A stretch of DNA of 64,000 bases from Callorhinchus milii (lineage: Eukaryota). Shown piece by piece: positions 9,073-52,082 of this stretch (positions within the stretch are counted from its first letter, which is position 1; each line of letters opens with the position of its first letter). The notes below the pieces were generated by a model. That model was not told the origin of the DNA. It saw nothing but the letters and a program-made list of their open reading frames with translations, and searched no databases. A program made the position numbers and the translations under genes. The DNA lies in NCBI RefSeq assembly GCF_018977255.1, contig NW_024704742.1, forward strand, positions 9,426,001 through 9,490,000, given 5' to 3'.

Positions 9073-10192
9073 TTAAAATCTTTTGAAAGGGAGAATTAAA
9101 AAAAAGCTGGGAAATCTCCAGTTGAACAACAACAACAACTTGCAGTTATATAGGGCCCTTCATGCGGGAAAACTTCCCAGAGCATTTGAACATACCCCCC
9201 CATGCCACATAGAAGATGCACTAAAGGACTTCCACTGGAAACACTGCCCTGATGTGAATAGAAAGCAGCAGCTTGAGAAAGGAAAGACAACTTTGGACCA
9301 GCACATGATTCGGAGGAATTCAACTTGTAAAATAAACTGCTTCCCTGTGTGTGTTGTGTTAACGATAACTTTGCCAACGCAAGTATAAACATTATAAAAT
9401 GAGGCTAAGCTAAAGTAAAACCACAAGATCCACCAAACAATGTAGTTGAGTACACAGCGACAGAGGCAGCCGGCTGCCTGATGGCACTGAAACTTTCTCA
9501 AGAGATCATGACGCATGCTATACTGCCCCCTTTCTAACCAGAGGCAGCACAGTCAGAGTTGAATGCTTTATAGTCCCAGTAAAATTGAAACTGGGTGTGG
9601 TTGTTGGAGAAGATGCCTGGAATGCGGGAGATTGTGATCAAATGCAGTGAGTGGAACATGTGAATGAAACTGACTGCTATCTTTGCAGCTCTGAGTGTTT
9701 ACCTAATTGAAACAAAAATAGTGCAGCTATGGCTGTTCCTTTCCCTGTTGCCTCCATTAGGAAATTACATGGCTGGAGCACTGTGTGCAGTTCTGCTCAT
9801 TACGGCAGCAGGGGGGTGGGGGAGCCGGGGGGGAGGGCAGCAAGGGGAGTCGAGGGCTAGAGGTGGTGCAGTGGAGAGCAACTAAACTGAACCTGGTGTT
9901 AGAAGGATGAGCTATAAGGAACGATAAAGCAAAGGACGCTGGAGACATCTCAGTGGAACATTATAGGGTATATAAGATGCTAATGAAATTAAATTGGCAA
10001 ATCCAAAACAATGCTTTCAAATATGCCAAGGCAATACGTTGAGGGCAAAGGTTCACTGCTTTTGTTTTAATCAGCCGGGTGCCTGATACATACAAAAAAA
10101 ATCATCGCCATGCTTAACACAGGAAATGCTGGATGAAAAAAGACCAAGGTCTATTGAGTTAGCCTTCTATCATCCTGAACATACTAGACTTG

Positions 10193-10442
10193 TCATAAAC
10201 ATAGAAGTCGCTGGGAATACGCAACAGGTCAGGCAGCATCTATGGCGAGAGGAAAATTAGTTAACGTTTCAGGTCTATGACCTTTCGTCAGACCTGTTCA
10301 GAACAGTTCTGATAAAAGGTCATAGACCTGAAACGTTAACTCATTTTCCTCTCATCTTGAATGCTGCCTAACCTGCTGAAGGTTCCCAGCGACTTCTGTG
10401 TTTATACCAGATTTCCAGCACCTTCAGTACTTTGACTTTCGT
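10193..10442. mobile_element. short palindromic Penelope-like-derived element with hammerhead-like motifs
   Basis: Inverted arms of about 95 bp centred on CTGTTC-A-GAACAG at about 10300; flanked by the 12-bp direct repeat ATACTAGACTTG (10181-10192 and 10443-10454). Confidence 0.75.
10259..10295 (-). ncRNA. minimal type I hammerhead-like motif
   Basis: Minus strand reads CTGACGA-A-AGGTC-ATA-GACCT-GAAA-CGTT-AACT; the core boxes are intact and stem I has one mismatch. Confidence 0.5.
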
Positions 10443-10800
10443 ATACTAGACTTGCCAAATGTCATGACTTAAATTACTTCTGTCACCTACACATGGAAAT
10501 TTTCCTGTGTCTGGAATGCAATGCACATTCCCTCTCTGAAGAGACACACCCTGCATACCTAATTCCGGACAGTATTTGGCAAGAGCCAAGGCTTGGGTAT
10601 TGCTCAAGTTTAACCAGCTAAAACCACATAACGTGCCAATGCAAAGGTGATTAGGCAAGTTTCCCACTACTTGAATCAGTCTACACATTAGACCATGAGC
10701 AATTTGCATATCCTGCACCAACCCACTTCCATGTGCTCCACTGCCTTTATCAGAGTTTTAGATCTTTTACCCCCTCTTCCTATCCTTGATACCAGATTGT

Positions 10801-11640: not shown

Positions 11641-11674
11641 CTTAGAATAAGAGTCCAAAGCCAACTACTTAAGT

Positions 11675-11880
11675 TATGAAATACGAACAGAAGTCACTCA
11701 GAACGTGCAACATCTATGGAGAGAGGAAAGTGAGTTAGCGTTTCAGGTGGATGACCTTTCATCAGAAGCTTTCGGTAACTAATTTTCCTCTCTACATAGA
11801 TGCTACCTGACCTGCTGCGTGTTCCCAGTGACTTTTTTATTTTATTTCAGATTTGCAGCATCTGCGGTATTATGCCTTTT
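11675..11880. mobile_element. second copy of the palindromic element, partly deleted
   Basis: Shares CATCTATGGAGAGAGGAAA..GTTTCAGGT..ATGACCTTTCATCAG and TGCTACCTGACCTGCTG..TTCCCAG with 10193-10442. Confidence 0.75.
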
Positions 11881-11883
11881 GCA

Positions 11884-12192
11884 GAGTCCTGTAGCTCAGT
11901 GTTTAGAGCACTCGCCTGACAAGCGAGAGACCTGGATTCAATTCCTGGCAGGGCAAAACCTTGGGCAAATTTCCTTATTCCACACGACTAATAATAATCC
12001 CTCAAGATAAAATAAATAAATAAATAAATAAATTGGTCACTTCAACCCACGACTGTTTGTGGGACATTGCTGTGCGCAATTGGCTGCCACATTTCGCCCA
12101 CAAAATATACAGTCAATTCACTTTACAATATATTCTATGAAGCACTTTGAGATGCCTAGAAGACATGAAAATACTATATCAAATGCAAGGAT
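11884..12192 (+). mobile_element. tRNA-derived SINE, short subfamily
   Basis: Head GAGTCCTGTAGCTCAGTG; lacks the long middle segment; shared 3' domain. Confidence 0.85.
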
Positions 12193-12584
12193 TTTTTTTA
12201 CTTAAGTTAATGACTTGATTGTGTGATCTGATTTCAAGAATCAAATGTCCTCGGAGTATCTGATTTCAAGAGCTATGTCATTTAGCAACAGTTTCATAAG
12301 TTAACAATTCCTGATATGAATGTCAGGCTGAATCAGATTTATCCAACATGATAGTAAAATTATGGAGTTAGTCATAAGTTTTGCAATAGCAGAGTATCTC
12401 TTTATGAGAGTAGCTCTAGAAATCACTTTGTTTCCCTTTTTGTTTAAAAACTCTCTGACTTTTACATTGCTCCTGTTTACATTATTCTCATTGCTTTTCA
12501 CAACTGAGCATCACAAAGACAACAACTCCAATGAAACAGGGTGTCAGCACAAATGGACTCTCTATGTTGCAATTCATATATCAT

Positions 12585-23371: not shown

Positions 23372-23825
23372 ACCCAGAGGATCGAATTCAAGATCCTCAT
23401 CCTCACCTACAAGGCCATTCACGGCTTTGCTCCCTCCTACCTCTCCGACCTACTATCCCCCTACCTACCTACCCGTACCCTCCGTTCCTCTGGCTCCGGT
23501 CTGCTGCACATCCCCCGCCCCAACCGCCCTACCATCGGTGGCCGGGCCTTCAGCCTCTCAGCCCCTAGGCTCTCAGCCCCTAGGCCCAGTGCCTTCGCCG
23601 CCTCCTCCCTTTCCTCCTTCAAGGTCGGTCTCAAGACCTTTCTCTTTGACCGTGCCTTCAGCTCCCCTCTCAACTCTCTACCCCCTCCTCGCTCCCTCCC
23701 TTCCCTCCCCTCACCCTGACCATTTCCCCCCTGCTCGGGTCCTGACCCAACTGTACAGTGCCTTGGGACGTCCTCCTGACGTGAAAGGTGCTCAATAAAT
23801 GGAATCTTGTTGTTGTTGTTGTTGT
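23372..23825 (+). mobile_element. young 5'-truncated L2 LINE
   Basis: QRIEFKILILTYKAIHG..PSYLSDLL..PTIGGRAFS; tail stem-loop and (TTG)n; inserted in a Deu-type SINE remnant at about 23050-23370. Confidence 0.93.
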
Positions 23826-24041
23826 ACAACAACAACAACAACAAGATTCCATTTATAAAGCGCCTTTCACGTCAGGAGGACGTCCCAAGGCGCTGCACAG
23901 TTGGGTCATGACCCGAGCAGGGGGGAAATGGTCAGGGTGAGGGGAGGGAGGGAGCGAGGAGGGGGGAAATGGTCAGGGTGAGGGGAGAGAAGGGAGGGAG
24001 CGAGGAGGGGAAGAGAGTCGAGAGGGGAGCTGAAGGCACGG

Positions 24042-26135
24042 TCAAAGAGAAAGGTTTTGAGACCGGCCTTGAAGGAGGAAAGGGAGGAAGCGGCGAAGGC
24101 ACTGGGGGATGGAGTTCCAGAGCCTCGGGGCTGAGAGGCTGAAGGCCCGACCACCGATGGTAGGGCGGTTGGGGCGGGGGACGTGGAGCAGACCGGAGCC
24201 AGAGGAACGGAGGGTACGGGCAGGTAGGTAGGGGGATAGTAGGTTGGAGAGGTAGGAGGGAGCAAGGCCGTGAATGGCCTTGTAGGTGAGGATGAGGATC
24301 TTGAAATCAATCCTCTGGGGGATGGGGAGCCAGTGGAGGCGAGCGAGGGTGGGAGTGATGTGGTCCCGAAGCCTGGTGCGGGACAGTACACGAGCTGCAG
24401 AGTTCTGAATGACCTGCAGCTTGTGGAGGGAGGTGGCGGGAAGGCCGGCGAGGAGAGAGTTCCCATAGTCCAGCCTTGAGGTGACAAAGGCGTGGACCAG
24501 GGTTTCAGCAGCGTGAGGGGTGAGGTAATGCCGTAGTCTGGCGATATTCCGGAGGTGATGGAAGGCGGTGCCAGTTGTGGTGCGGATGTGAGGGAGAAAG
24601 GACAGCTCAGGGTCGAACAAAACGCCGAGGTTCCTGACTGGCTTTGAGAGGTGGAGAGTGCAGCCTTGGATGCTGATGGTGTCAGCGCCTGAGGTGCGGA
24701 GGCGCTGACGTGAGCCAATCAGGAGGGCCTCGGTTTTTCGCACGTTGAGCTGAAGAAAGTTGTCTCTCGTCCAGGACTCGATGTCGGACAGGCAGCTGTC
24801 AGGACATCGGTGGTCGTGGAGTTGAGAGTAGAGGAGGAAAGGTAGAGTTGGGTGTCATCCGCATACATGTGGAAGTTAACTCCATGTCTGCGGATGATGT
24901 CACCAAGGGGGAGCATATAGAGGGTGAAGAGGAGGGGACCGAGGACAGAGCCCTGAGGGACACCACATGAGACAGTACGGGGGGTGGAGGAGAAGCCATT
25001 CGTCGAGACAAAGTGAAGACGGTGAGAAAGGTACGACCTAAACCATTCAAGGACAGTGCCTTGAAGGTTGAGGTGGGAGGACAAGCGGTGGAGTAGGATA
25101 GCGTGGTCGACCGTATCGAATGCTGCCGATAGGTCGAGGAGGACGAGGAGACAGAGGGAGCCCTGGTCACAGATGGTCAGGATATCATTGGTGACCTTGA
25201 CCAGGGCAGTTTCTGTGCTATGGGCAGCACGGAAACCTGACTGAAGGGGTTCGAAAAGAGAATGGGTGGAAAGGAAAGAGCGCAGTTGGGAGGCGACAAC
25301 TCTTTCCAAGACCTTGGAGAGAAAGGGGAGGTTGGAGATGGGCCGGTAGCTTGATAGCTGCGACGCATCAAGGGAGGGTTTTTTCAGGGTGGGCGTGATG
25401 ATGGCAGTTTTTAATGGAATGGGGACAGAGCCAGAGGAGAGGGACAGGTTGATGATGTCAGTGATATGTGGGGCAAGAAAGTGGAGCTGGGAGATAAGGA
25501 GTGGAGTGGGGATGGGGTCAAGGGAGCAGGTGGTTGGTTTTAGGGATAGGATGAGTTCAGTGACAGAGGGTGGGGAAACGGGTACGAAGGTGTGTAGGGG
25601 AGGATGGGTAGGAGTCGGAGTGTGGGAGGGAAGGGGTGGGTGGTGGGTGGAAGTTGGAGGGGAAGTGACCGCGGAGCGGATTCCCTTGATCTTGGATTCA
25701 AGGAAATCCAGCATCTCCTCGCAGTGAAGGTTGGAGGAGATGACCTGCGCGGGGTGGCGGGGGGGACGGAGGAGTCGGGTTGTGGTGGAAAACAGTAGCC
25801 TGGGGTTGTTCTTCGCCTCCAGGATTATCCTGGAGTAGAAGGACGACTTGGCCGAGGCTAGAGTGGAGCGGTAAATTTTGAGGAGGTCCAGCCAGATTTG
25901 TCGGTGGACCGTTAGGCCAGATTTGACACAGGTGCGTTCAGCAGCCCGCACCTGGCATTTCAGTGAGCGGAGGTGGGTGGTGTACCAGGGGGAGGAGCGG
26001 GAGTAGGAGACAGTGCGGGAAGTGATGGGGGCAAGAGTATCGAGTGTGGAGGAGAAGGTATTGTTGAGGAGGGAGAGAGGAGAGGAGAAGAGGGGTCGGT
26101 GAGGGTTGAAGGCCAGAGGGAGAGGAGTTAAGAGG
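24042..26135 (-). pseudogene. L2 reverse transcriptase and C-terminus, frameshifted at about 26135, 24795 and 24092
   Basis: [74 protein letters not shown] and LHWLPIPQRIDFK. Confidence 0.95.
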
Positions 26136-26850
26136 CATCGGTTAGGGATTGTGGGGGTAACTTCTTCCAAGGGCGGTAGAAGATGGTGGTGGGTCTGGTG
26201 GAGGTGGGGAGGGGGGTGGAGGTGGTGAAGGAGATGAAGTAGTGGTCAGAGATGGCCTTGTCGGTAATAGTGACATCCGAGACACTGAGGCCCCGGGTGA
26301 TCACCAAATCGAGTGGGTGGCCGTGACTGTGAGTGGGGGAGTTTATGTGTAAGGAGAGGTTGAGTGAGGAGAGCAGGGAAGAGAAGTCTGTGGAGATGGA
26401 GCAGGAGGGGGTGAAGTGTAGGTTAAAGTCGCCCAGGATGATGAGGCGATCGGAGCAGAGGCAAAGAGATGTGAGGAGTGTTGAAATGTCAGAGATGAAG
26501 GTGGGAGAGGTTTTAGGGGGCCGGTAGAGGAGGAGGATTTTAAGGGAGAGGAATGAGGGGTGGGAGAGGGTGAGGTGCTCAAAGGAGGGGAAAGAGCCAG
26601 TGGAGTAGGGGGATAGGGCAAGTGGTGTCCTTGAGATAAGGGCAACACCACCGCCACGGCGGTTGGGGCGGGGGATGTGGTGGGAGGTGTAGCCGGGTGG
26701 CGTGGCCTCCGTGAGGGGGAAGGTGTCGCCTGGGGTGAGCCAGGTTTCCGTTAAGGCCATGATATCAACGTTCTCATCAAGGATGAGATCGTTGATGACC
26801 AGGGCCTTGTTGCAGAGGGAGCGGACATTTTGCAGTCCGATGTGGAGGGA
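26128..26850 (-). pseudogene. L2 apurinic-like (APE) endonuclease domain
   Basis: Motifs GLQNVRSL, ALTETWL, RRGGGVA, LYRPP, ILGDFN, PTHSHGHPLDLV and SDHY, all in one frame. Confidence 0.93.
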
Positions 26851-27524
26851 GCGGTTGACAGAAGGGTGTGTGGGAGGGGAGGGGGGTCCAGGTTGTGAGG
26901 CAGGGGTGGGGGAGATGGGGATGAGGGAGGAGAGGTTGACTCCCCGGGTCTGTGTCCGGGGTGGGTGGCGAGTGTGGTGGGGAATGGGGCAGTCGGTGTG
27001 GCTGCTGCTGGACAGCCAACGCCGAGTGCCGCGGTGAGCCCGGCGGAGGATTCCCAGGGTGGAACAGAGGGAGGTTGTGGGAGGGTCAAGTGGGGATAGA
27101 AGACGAGAGGGACGGAGAGAGAGGAGGAGAGAGCGGGAGAGATGCAGAGGGGGGAGGGTTTGGGGGGAGAGAGGAGGGGGAGGGAGGGAGGGGGTGAGGG
27201 GGCTCGGGTCAAAGCGGCAGCCATAGTGCGCACGCGGGGACCGGGAGCGAGCGGTCAGGTGGATGGCATTATCCCGTAGATTGGGGCAGCGAACCCAACA
27301 GGACCATAGTGGGCTCTGATGTGAGCCCTGGGGGGGGGCGCAGAGGGTTTTTTTTTTTTTCTTCTTTTTTGTACTTCACTTTACAGAAAAGAAAACCTCT
27401 GCAAAGGGCCTTCAGACATTTTGATATAATATACTACATCAAACTCAGAAATTATTATTTTATTATTCTCAGAGATATTATAAGAGATACAAGAAAACAC
27501 TTCCTTTTGATATGGAAATCATCA

Positions 27525-30787: not shown

Positions 30788-31109
30788 TAAATCACATCAT
30801 AGGATTGTTTCCTCTAATTCTGCTGTGTAGATTTAATCATGTTCCATCCTTCCTCATGCCATTACTGCGAAATATAAATGCCAGTACCTATCCATGTTAA
30901 ATCAATACGAGTTCTGTGTATAGCGAATGGAGCACTGCCTCACTGAACGGTTCAAATATTGATCCTGCATGACTTTGGTCTCTGCTGAGCAGTCCTTCCG
31001 GATCTCATTTTCTCATTGCATGGCTATTTCCTGCAACAAAATGGAGTCCCGTAGCAATTGGGCTGCCACCTTTCGCCCACAAAATACAAAATCAATCCGC
31101 TTTAAAATA

Positions 31110-31262
31110 TAACACAAAATACTGCAGATGCTGGAAATCTGAAAATAAAAACAGAAGTCGCTGGGAACACTCAGCAGGTCAGGCAGCATCTATGGAGAAA
31201 GGAAAGTTTCAGGTCCACATTTCGTTGACTCACTTTCCCAGCGACTTCTGCTTTTGTTTTTC
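31110..31262. mobile_element. third copy of the palindromic element (centre deleted), nested in a SINE 3' domain
   Basis: AAAATACTGCAGATGCTGGAAATCTG...CAGAAGTCGCTGGGAA...TTCCCAGCGACTTCTG; the flanks repeat CTTTAAAATATA (about 31100 and 31264). Confidence 0.75.
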
Positions 31263-31528
31263 ACTTTAAAATATATTCTGCAAAGCACTTTGAGATGTCT
31301 CAATGGCATGATAAGGTGCTATATTAAATGCAAGGATTATTATTATAAAATGAGATTGACCTGAAGAGGCATCTAGTATACCATTAGCCTTTTAGCCATG
31401 GTTTTACTTAGGCCCAAAGCAGGTCCTTTTGAAACCTCCCGGACAGACAACGGCTATGTCCCTGGACTTCCTGAGAGCGGTGCAGGGGCACTGATGGACA
31501 CACATGTTACATCACACCAATCTCTCGT

Positions 31529-32019: not shown

Positions 32020-32128
32020 AACAAATACGAAAACAACAGTCGCCTGGAATACTCAGCGGGTCAGGCAGTATCTAAGGAGAGAGGAAAATTAGTTAACGTT
32101 TCAGATCGATGACCTTTCGTCAGAACTC
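32020..32128. mobile_element. fourth copy (single arm) of the palindromic element
   Basis: AGTCGCCTGGAATACTCAGCGGGTCAGGCAGTATCT..GAGAGGAAAATTAGTTAACGTTTCAG matches the left arm at 10203-10295. Confidence 0.75.
32091..32127 (-). ncRNA. minimal type I hammerhead-like motif (best-preserved copy)
   Basis: Minus strand: AGTT-CTGACGA-A-AGGTC-ATC-GATCT-GAAA-CGTT-AACT; stem I AGTT/AACT, stem II with one G-U pair, palindromic AACGTT in place of stem III. Confidence 0.55.
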
Positions 32129-38268: not shown

Positions 38269-38458
38269 GTCTCCCTTATTCCTATGGGATGAATGCTGCA
38301 CATCCATTGAGTGGAGGACGCTGGTGGTAGATTGGGATGCCATCAACTTCCAGACCTCTACCTGTACCACCAATTAATAATTATGATAATAGTAATAATA
38401 ATTCTCACATTTGATATAGCACCTTATCACATTGTTGAGTCGTCTCAAAGTGCTTCAC

Positions 38459-39680
38459 AATTTTTTTGAAGAGATGACTGCGGGGGTTGATGAGGGAAAT
38501 GCAGTGGACGTTATTTACATGGATTTCAAAAAGGCTTTTGACACAGTACCGCATAAGAGATTAATAAAAAAATTAGAGGCCCACGGTATTAAGGGGACAG
38601 TGGCAGTTTGGATTAAGAACTGGCTGAGTGACAGAAAGCAGAGGGTGGTGGTTAATGGGTGTTTCTCGAAATGGAAGGAGGTGTGTAGCGGTGCCCCCAG
38701 GGATCGGCATTGGGACCACTGCTCTTTCTAATATATATTAATGATCTGGACTTGGGCAGATGACACAAAGTTAGATAGGGTAGTAAATAATGAGGAGGAC
38801 TGTAACCAACTGCAAGCAGACATACACAGAATGGTGGAATGGGCTGACATGTGGCAGATGGATTTCAATGTGGATAAGTGTGAGGTGATACACTTAGGTA
38901 GGAAAAATGATAGGAGGCAATATAGACTTGGTAGCTCAATCTTAAGGGGGGTGAACGTACAGAGAGATCTGGGTGTTCAAGTAAGCGAATCATTAAAGGT
39001 AGTGGGGCAGGTAGATAAGGCAGTAAAAAAGGCATTTGGTGTACTGAGCTTTATTAGTAGGGGCATAGAGTATAAGAGTAGGGAGGTTATGGTTAATCTG
39101 TACAAAACACTGGTTAGGCCTCAGCTGGAGTACTGCGTCCAGTTCTGGGCACCTTACTTCAGGAAGGACATTAAGGCACTGGAAAGGGTGCAGAGGAGAT
39201 TCACGAGAATGATACCAGGAATGGGGAAGCTTAGCTATGAGGACAGGCTGGAGAAGTTAGGACTTTTCCCATTAGAGCAGAGAAGGTTACGCGGGGACCT
39301 GATAGAGGTCTTCAAGATCATGAAAGGTTTCGACAGGCGAGATAGGGAAAAGCTGTTTCCGCTGGTAGGTGTGTCTGTGACTCGTGGTCACAGTCTTAAG
39401 ATATCTACCAAAAGAAGCAGAGGGGAGGTTAGAAGAAATTTTTTCACTCAGCGAGTTGTTCGAATTTGGAATGATCTGCCTGAAAGGGTAGTGAAGTCCG
39501 ATTCGATAACAGCTTTTAAGAGAGAACTGGATAGGTATCTGGGGAAGACGGGTTTGCAGGGTTATGGGGAGAAAGCTGGTGATTGGGGTTAGTGAAAGTG
39601 ACTTGCTCTGTCAAAGAGCCGGCACAGACTCGATGGGCCAAATGGCCCCTTTCTGTGCCGTAACATTCTATGAATCTATG
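38459..39680 (+). mobile_element. 5'-truncated CR1 LINE (RT C-terminal half), inserted in a Deu-type SINE
   Basis: VDVIYMDFKKAFDTVPHKRL, ADDTKL, ERVQRRFTRMI, RRLRGDLIEVFKI, RNFFTQRVVRIWNDLP; ATTCTATG tail; host SINE pieces at 38390-38458 and 39681-40035. Confidence 0.95.
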
Positions 39681-50894: not shown

Positions 50895-51100
50895 CCCCAG
50901 CACAGCCCAGCACAGCCCAGCACAGCACAGCCCAGCACAGCCCAGCACAGCACAGCCCAGCACAGCACAGCACAGCACAGCACAGCACAGCACAGCACAG
51001 GCTAACTCAGCTCAGCCCAGCACAGCTCAGTACAGCACAGCACAGTGTAACTCAGCACAGCCCAGCACAGCTCAGCCCAGCACAGCTCAGCCCAGCACAA
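50895..51100. repeat. pentamer microsatellite (CAGCA/CAGCC/CAGCT)n
   Basis: Directly visible. Confidence 0.95.
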
Positions 51101-51212
51101 GGCACCTACACCAGCTGAACTCTGCCTCCTGCCAGACCTCACCTGCCTCCTGCTCCAGTTTGTTGAGGATCTAACCTTCCGATTGCCCAGAAAGCCCCGT
51201 CCACCCCCCGAG

Positions 51213-51550
51213 TCCAGCAGAGAACCCAGCAAACCCAGCAAACCCAGCACAGAGCCCAGCAGAGAGCCCAGCAAACCCAGCACAGAGCCCAGCAAACCCA
51301 GCAGAGAGCCCAGCAAACCCAGCACAGAGCCCAGCAGAGAGCCCAGCAAACCCAGCACAGAGCCCAGCAAACCCAGCAGAGAGCCCAGCAAACCCAGCAC
51401 AGAGCCCAGCAGAGAGCCCAGCAAACCCAGCACAGAGCCCAGCACAGAGCCCAGCAGAGAGCCCAGCAGAGAGCCCAGCAAACCCAGCACAGAGCCCAGC
51501 ACAGAGCCCAGCACAGAGCCCAGCAAACCCAGCAGAGAGCCCAGCAGAGA
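51213..51550. repeat. minisatellite of 9- and 12-bp units (CCCAGCAAA, CCCAGCACAGAG, CCCAGCAGAGAG)
   Basis: Directly visible; includes a 75-bp higher-order unit present twice. Confidence 0.95.
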
Positions 51551-51720
51551 TGTCTGAGGGCAAACAGGGGGGGAAGGTCAAGAGGAAGGATCGCAACAGA
51601 GAGAAGGAGGAGGGGAAGAAGAAGAGAACAGGTGAAGGGAAGAAGAAGAGAGCAGGTGAAGTACTGTGGACACTTTAAGGATATACAGACAGCAAACTCC
51701 CCCTCTCCCCCTCTCTCCCC

Positions 51721-51752
<32 letters not shown>

Positions 51753-52082
51753 TTAAAACTTTTTTTTTGGAGACTTATTGCTGAGCTGTTTGAGTGTTGG
51801 AGCTGTCACAGTAAGTCTCTGCTCTGCAGCGATCGGTCTCTGAGTGGCTCTTTTACACCTGAGATCCGCGAAGGTTTTTCTCTTTTTTTTACACGAAGTA
51901 TCTGTGCGGACAGTGGGACCACAGTCTCTGCGGAGGGTTCATTTGGGTCGGAGTGGGTGTCCCTCGGTGTTGTGTGTGTGTGTGTGGGGGGGGGGTGGGG
52001 GGGGGGGGGGCCTCACCCACTTTCTGTTTCCAGTTTGTTTTACTTATTTCTGATGAAGCAGAGGGTCAGGGCTGATGTCCAG

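Follow-up and report, generated by a model that had tools for sequence, protein, structure and literature searches.

Insertions of Penelope-like elements (PLEs) show a recognizable anatomy. They carry an inverted, 5'-truncated partner, palindromes at the junction, a tail of 30-40 bp at one end and target-site duplications (TSDs) of 8-10 bp, and the PLE end piece contains the first 12 codons, or 22 codons with the tail (PMC8557442, PMC3846280). The PLE protein of the anole cuts and extends both DNA strands and prefers AT-rich DNA. Two internal start sites of reverse transcription delimit the tail and the template's 5' end sets the product length, while the later steps of PLE integration are unproven according to the same account (PMC11167929). 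For head-to-head junctions, fold-back self-priming has been favoured (PMC3846280).

PLEs also carry minimal hammerhead ribozymes, which have a short helix I, a conserved nucleotide placed between 9 and 10.1 and palindromic positions 15.2-16.2; as monomers they do not cleave, and as dimers they cleave at a low level (PMC4209133). The dimer model requires tandem motifs on the same strand (PMC6765202). In Poseidon of Anolis carolinensis (PAc), the ribozyme cleaves only with the PLE protein and is dispensable for insertion. G8 is a catalytic residue and its change abolishes cutting; as far as this account goes, no RNA-seq reads ending at the PAc cut site were found (PMC11167929).

Here we analysed an insertion within 64 kb of Callorhinchus milii DNA (this whole stretch is called the window). 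It is very probable that the locus is a PLE insertion stub with minimal hammerheads, and we consider it fairly probable that it is a dead by-product of PLE integration by double priming on PLE leader RNA. The head-to-head insertion pattern is already described, and this is a further, inactive and abundant example of it. No literature account of this family in cartilaginous fish was found; Repbase and Dfam may well contain it, and bioRxiv supplements may count it among the chondrichthyan retrozymes.

Anatomy of the insertion and its sister copies

The features of the locus (copy A) are as follows.

10181 to 10192, plus strand: target-site duplication, left copy, 12 bp, an exact 12-mer found twice in the window
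10193 to 10295, minus strand: short arm without tail, the likely PLE end piece read from the centre outward
10259 to 10295, minus strand: hammerhead motif, minimal type I, intact core, stem I mismatch at 10293
10296 to 10304, no strand: palindromic 9-nt filler between the arm heads, a place where other copies differ
10305 to 10409, plus strand: long arm up to the inner 3' end common to the short arms
10305 to 10341, plus strand: hammerhead motif, minimal type I, G8A at 10314, predicted cut after 10337
10361 to 10442, plus strand: putative start of a PLE reading frame with its ATG at 10361 and a frameshift here, no protein match
10410 to 10442, plus strand: one-sided PLE-type 'tail', 33 nt (compare PMC8557442, PMC3846280, PMC11167929)
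10443 to 10454, plus strand: target-site duplication, right copy, 12 bp, exact 12-mer

Two inverted arms (10195-10299 and 10301-10405) are 85% complementary with a spacer of 1 nt. The sequence-only reading had proposed arms of about 95 bp around 10300; the arms are there, with a length of 105 nt each. It had also proposed a 12-bp TSD, and this is confirmed by the exact 12-mer which abuts the insert on both sides. The right junction is spanned by a contig of run X1 with 1 difference (the assembly may have been built from X1, which is therefore no independent witness). The insert is lopsided, as the 33-nt extension lies outside the right arm only.

Both hammerheads of this copy point outward from the centre, which means that the arms are joined head to head. 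The arm-to-arm identity is 84% over 104 columns, so the insertion is old. Two variants are common to both arms and missing from other arms, and at position 10400 about 82% of the depth of run X1 has the other base; thus both arms came from one template or subfamily. The RNA of the whole 250-nt insert folds at -146 kcal/mol (z = -17.8, none of 200 shuffles equally stable), and for single arms the fold is no more stable than in shuffles (z -1.8 to +1.4).

Two further high-copy repeats, at 10110-10177 and 10481-10650, lie on either side of the insert; the unique sequence that separates them is short and contains the TSD. At the family equivalents of 10345-10360 and 10395-10410 there are two polypyrimidine-AG motifs that look like 3' splice sites, the first just 5' of the candidate ATG and the second at the inner 3' end, which is also the limit of the short arms. 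Introns are known in PLEs.

Related copies had been proposed near 11675, 31110 and 32020. All three exist (BLAST E 1e-27 to 4e-16), but none is a full palindrome, and a profile search gave no further family copy in the window below E 0.1.

11677 to 11882, both strands: copy B, minus-strand short arm carrying a hammerhead and plus-strand long arm that has a 33-nt tail and lacks most of its hammerhead
11666 to 12209, plus strand: 11-bp direct repeat (11666-11676 and 12199-12209) around copy B and the following tRNA-SINE
31112 to 31263, both strands: copy C, minus-strand long arm (28-nt tail) and plus-strand short arm of 36 nt, neither with a complete hammerhead
32022 to 32128, minus strand: copy D, a short arm on its own, whose hammerhead has an intact core and both stems

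Three of the four copies are two-armed with the heads at the centre. In each of these three the tail is on one arm only (33, 33 and 28 nt), the three short arms stop within about 2 nt of one column, and the junctions of copies A, B and C all differ. Among the seven arms in the window, four end at stem I, and sequence beyond stem I is common to none.

TSDs of 12, 11 and 12 bp were found in three of the four copies, with 7 G+C in 35 nt in total; none abuts copy D. The 12-bp TSD of copy C (31100-31111 and 31264-31275) lies in a SINE as host site, and all eight paralogous SINEs, hand-picked from a longer BLAST list, favour the 12-mer being present once over twice or absent. The 11-mer which encloses copy B with the SINE is probably the TSD of copy B, because none of 15 other SINEs had an exact flanking repeat longer than 7 nt (20 heads were examined, 16 had locatable 3' ends, and the SINE of copy B was excluded).

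The SINE directly after the tail of copy B is full length and ends in a T run instead of the usual (ATT)n. Copy B and this SINE may be a co-integrated chimera formed by template switch, or the SINE may have inserted later exactly at the junction. The long arm of copy B starts (at 11771-11780) 1-3 nt before the predicted hammerhead cut site, which is a single case. Either self-cut RNA may have been copied here, or a full arm may have lost an internal segment later.

We searched for an autonomous partner among the 144 ORFs of the window (at least 75 aa, low-complexity filter passed). With Pfam no GIY-YIG domain was found in them; RVT_1 was found in four and AP-endonuclease in one, all in LINE-type sequence, and LINE fragments are abundant in the window. 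The 41-residue frame of copy C gave two candidate proteins with none at E<=0.1, which weighs little, and the 33-residue frame of copy B, which is not the ATG frame, had no match among 1.84 billion representatives. The candidate ATG frame begins about 20 nt after the motif, and the long arms of copies B and C keep it open as far as the end of the tail; it has just 25 open codons and no protein match, and also weighs little. Since no GIY-YIG/RT partner was found, the putative membership in PLEs rests on anatomy.

The window holds other repeats. SINEs headed by tRNA are abundant (20 tRNA matches among 43 Rfam rows), and an alanine-tRNA SINE with L2-type tail that is this dense resembles, by description, the holocephalan CmiSINEs (PMC5499810). 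A near full-length LINE on the minus strand (23702-23949 and 24042-27375), with AP endonuclease and RT, is frameshifted and L2-like. Its 3' end and that of an inverted copy abut, tail to tail, around a (TTG)n/(CAA)n centre, which explains a spurious MIR7533 match. An RT-bearing LINE fragment on the plus strand (38420-39592) is CR1-like. A tandem repeat at 51000-51800 is open in several frames, rich in SPA or EPSK, and is possibly a coding exon.

Hammerhead motifs and their function

The two opposed hammerhead motifs of the sequence-only reading were found at 10259-10295 on minus and 10305-10341 on plus. As it had described, the core of the minus motif is intact, and the plus motif has a perfect stem I (4/4) with an altered core (G8A). 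Stem I of the minus motif pairs 3/4. The plus motif also has the extra A, a stem II of 5 bp and a palindromic CG at 15.2-16.2. The extra A had been taken as a caveat; it is instead expected, because the conserved nucleotide between 9 and 10.1 is part of the definition of PLE minimal hammerheads (PMC4209133).

Minimal motifs were detected with a hand-made descriptor requiring a strict core. It gave two matches in the window (the minus motif here and copy D) against a mean of 0.03 over 60 shuffles; the plus motif was matched only once G8A was permitted. The proposed Rfam search gave no hammerhead family among 43 window matches at E<=5.

The core boxes CUGANGA and GAAA, then UH, are intact in three of four motifs, and the extra nucleotide between 9 and 10.1 and the palindromic 15.2-16.2 are present in all four. 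In stems I and II, 33 of 36 cells pair (91.7%) compared with 14-47% in slid controls, the structure being drawn from the same sequences. None of the 9 stem pairs changes on both sides among these four related sequences.

In the family contigs, most of the depth has neither of the two defects seen at this locus. At position 8 (10314), G is the majority base with 53-65% of the summed depth in four runs, and the pairing base at 10293 has 80-98% across the four runs (about 91% in run X1). Position 7 is about half C and half T, and for this reason the remaining loss of G8 looks like CpG decay. These core-base differences come from the best 40 of 110 rows, which need not cover every core base.

The ribozymes are unlikely to function at this locus. 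Whichever strand is transcribed, the RNA has just one motif in sense, and forcing the hammerhead fold would change the predicted energy from -146.0 to -103.6 kcal/mol on the plus strand and from -151.4 to -105.8 kcal/mol on the minus strand, a cost of 42-46 kcal/mol. The plus copy moreover lacks the catalytic G8 and the minus copy has the stem I mismatch, so both motifs are defective. The two ribozymes cannot dimerise in cis because they are on opposite strands, and the dimer role suggested earlier for the opposed motifs is not upheld by the single sense motif and the fold cost. The hammerheads would be passengers of the leader, idle at this locus. In the source element they probably cleave as same-strand dimers or aided by the PLE protein.

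Family unit and origin of the insertion

Contigs of four public runs were aligned to 9900-10780 at 80% likeness, giving 6600, 6364, 4960 and 1946 contigs, which include those of the two other flank repeats. In run X1 the summed depth is 154,000-214,000 on the left arm and 7-10 on the unique flank. Summed depth is not copy number, but four copies per 64 kb point to the same order of magnitude (10^4). Contigs of organisms B and C leave the unique flanks of the locus without coverage and so give no orthologous empty site. These flanks also lack coverage in run X6 (guessed to be RNA), where family contigs are present; neither point bears on expression. Scans of viral, metagenome and prokaryotic genome contig collections gave no match to the arm motifs.

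Loose ends lie behind 10292 in 121, 124, 79 and 33 contigs of the four runs; past 10292 they continue for three more family letters, and then agreement is just 0.37-0.39. In runs X11 and X12, seven of the 16 listed pieces begin at 10304 and five of these seven end at 10439. Such 10304-10439 pieces sit inside longer contigs and recur in organisms B and C. From the pile-up of loose ends and these repeated pieces, the family unit is a monomer of about 136 nt whose first base is that of hammerhead stem I, and its copy number seems to be very high in three organisms. The palindrome had been taken as the family unit before; this is not supported, as the junctions differ in every copy and the contigs point to the monomer. 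The loose-end results are those of the 24 best-supported rows listed (1727 further rows exist), and among these 24 no family-wide 5'-end peak was seen at the predicted cut site.

The anatomy, the TSDs, the tail, the fixed 5' boundary, the varied junctions and the decay are observed, and we propose the following origin for them. A PLE protein (GIY-YIG endonuclease and reverse transcriptase) would nick both strands of an AT-rich site 12 nt apart, and each nick would prime cDNA on the element RNA. One cDNA would start at the outer site (the tail end) and the other at an inner site about 33 nt upstream. Both would reach the 5' end of the RNA, which is the first base of hammerhead stem I, and be joined head to head via the 9-nt filler, and fill-in of the staggered nicks would create the TSD. 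For the template, the pseudo-LTR leader of a complete PLE transcript is the most likely candidate, on which internal initiation would give short run-off copies. Double priming would account for the TSD, the orientation, the one-sided tail, the fixed head and the varied junctions. These steps are modelled on the anole enzyme; which enzyme acted, that priming was double and what served as template are all inferred. Against this explanation stand the missing link to a PLE protein, the lack of covariation among the four hammerheads and copy D without TSD. The symmetric centre and the shared variants would also fit fold-back self-priming for the second arm.

The main rival keeps the same PLE mechanism, with a dedicated non-autonomous ribozyme-headed RNA of about 136 nt as template, having its own masters and being mobilised in trans. 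We regard it as possible, with a clearly smaller chance. The sharp 5' boundary at stem I, upstream of which no sequence is common to the copies, suits a dedicated element equally well as leader run-off. The recurrence of 10304-10439 pieces in organisms B and C, the very high apparent copy number and the absence of an autonomous partner from the ORF scan and the short-frame searches also speak for it, and non-autonomous PLE derivatives are described (PMC8557442, bioRxiv 10.64898/2026.07.22.740005). But no internal promoter is seen, as Rfam gave no tRNA or other small-RNA head on the arms, and tandem copies look rare, with one 'goes back' joint among 15 listed. Internal initiation of reverse transcription near the ORF start followed by run-off explains a fixed short unit without a master (PMC11167929). 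A stronger form, in which the monomer is a discrete, ribozyme-headed, promoter-less retroposon mobilised by PLEs with about 10^4 copies in several cartilaginous fishes, is somewhat less probable still. If it were true, the sharp 5' end, the two 3' ends and the occasional arms starting at the scissile bond would be a fossil record of the in vivo sites of PLE RNA start, priming and self-cutting, so far elusive in RNA-seq.

The 250-bp palindrome may itself be mobile, as a two-ribozyme device which cuts transcripts of either strand or acts as dimer, but we give this little credence. Both arms of this copy end at the same point and share private variants, and near-identical centres (1-3-nt differences) recur in a few contigs, as such a unit would have. 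However, copies B, C and D are not full palindromes, arm-arm joints spread over many positions, and the depth across the centre is about 7-22% of that of the arm heads (depth again not being copy number). The fold cost, the single sense motif and the damage to both motifs also count against it.

Mutator-type elements have long terminal inverted repeats and 9-11-bp TSDs. A fold-back DNA transposon derivative of this kind (a Mutator-like MITE) with incidental hammerhead likeness would have the long inverted arms and the 11-12-bp TSD, but it is very improbable. The inverted repeats do not abut the TSD on both sides, with 28-33 nt beyond one of the arms, some copies have a single arm, and the internal junctions differ from copy to copy. 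The motif, rare in shuffles, also has all the sequence features that mark the minimal hammerheads of PLEs.

Two other readings were considered and rejected. L1-type twin priming was ruled out, as the same 3' end is repeated in both arms and neither a poly(A) nor a microsatellite tail is present. Tandem repetition belongs to the definition of animal retrozymes (bioRxiv 10.64898/2026.07.22.740005, PMC7229834), and none of the four copies is in tandem. So the label 'retrozyme-like' of the sequence-only reading is unsupported, whereas its description as retro-inserted, non-coding and PLE-type, with minimal type I hammerheads in an abundant family, stands.

The single locus is of little consequence, but the family is a large natural data set on PLE integration. 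With thousands of short copies, the nick spacing (as TSD length), the pairing of the two RT start sites and the joining of heads would be measurable, and the family could show whether any arms start at the hammerhead cut site. Read-through transcripts would give 105-bp hairpins, possible substrates for editing or small RNAs.

Comparison with known systems

The by-product of PLE integration which we favour can be compared with four groups of described systems. The insertion units of EN-positive PLEs (Penelope/Poseidon, Neptune, Nematis; PMC3846280, PMC8557442) are alike in their head-to-head inverted end pieces, junction palindrome, 30-40-bp tail at one end, short TSD and common solo end pieces. 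They differ in TSD length, which is 8-10 bp in the rotifer cases described and 11-12 bp here. In addition, no ORF lies between the arms here, and the arms end at a set position, where hammerhead stem I begins.

With the minimal hammerheads of metazoan PLEs (Cervera and De la Pena 2014, PMC4209133), the motifs share the type I form, the 4-bp stem I, the extra 9/10.1 nucleotide, the absence of helix III and the palindromic 15.2-16.2, and in both cases mostly single scattered motifs occur. Pairs on opposite strands were reported there at 100-700 bp, whereas they are about 10 nt apart here. Stem II has 5 bp here, with A-U before G-C as parsed, against 7-8 bp in Schistosoma, and both motifs of this locus are defective.

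Non-LTR retrozymes of animals (Cervera 2020, PMC7229834; Li 2026, bioRxiv 10.64898/2026.07.22.740005) are similarly non-coding, with a type I hammerhead, kinship to PLE end pieces and dispersed monomers. They are described as head-to-tail tandem arrays which self-cleave and circularise, with a canonical motif, whereas the copies here are head-to-head or solo with a minimal motif.

In PAc (Frangieh 2024, PMC11167929) there are two 3' ends, set apart by the tail, the hammerhead is located about 100-130 nt upstream of them, and the target is AT-rich, all of which is matched here. PAc is autonomous and has been assayed, and its ORF starts from stem II, whereas the candidate ATG here comes about 20 nt after the motif. 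The candidate ATG frame of copies B and C is in turn similar to the rotifer PLE end piece with its first codons (PMC8557442, PMC3846280).
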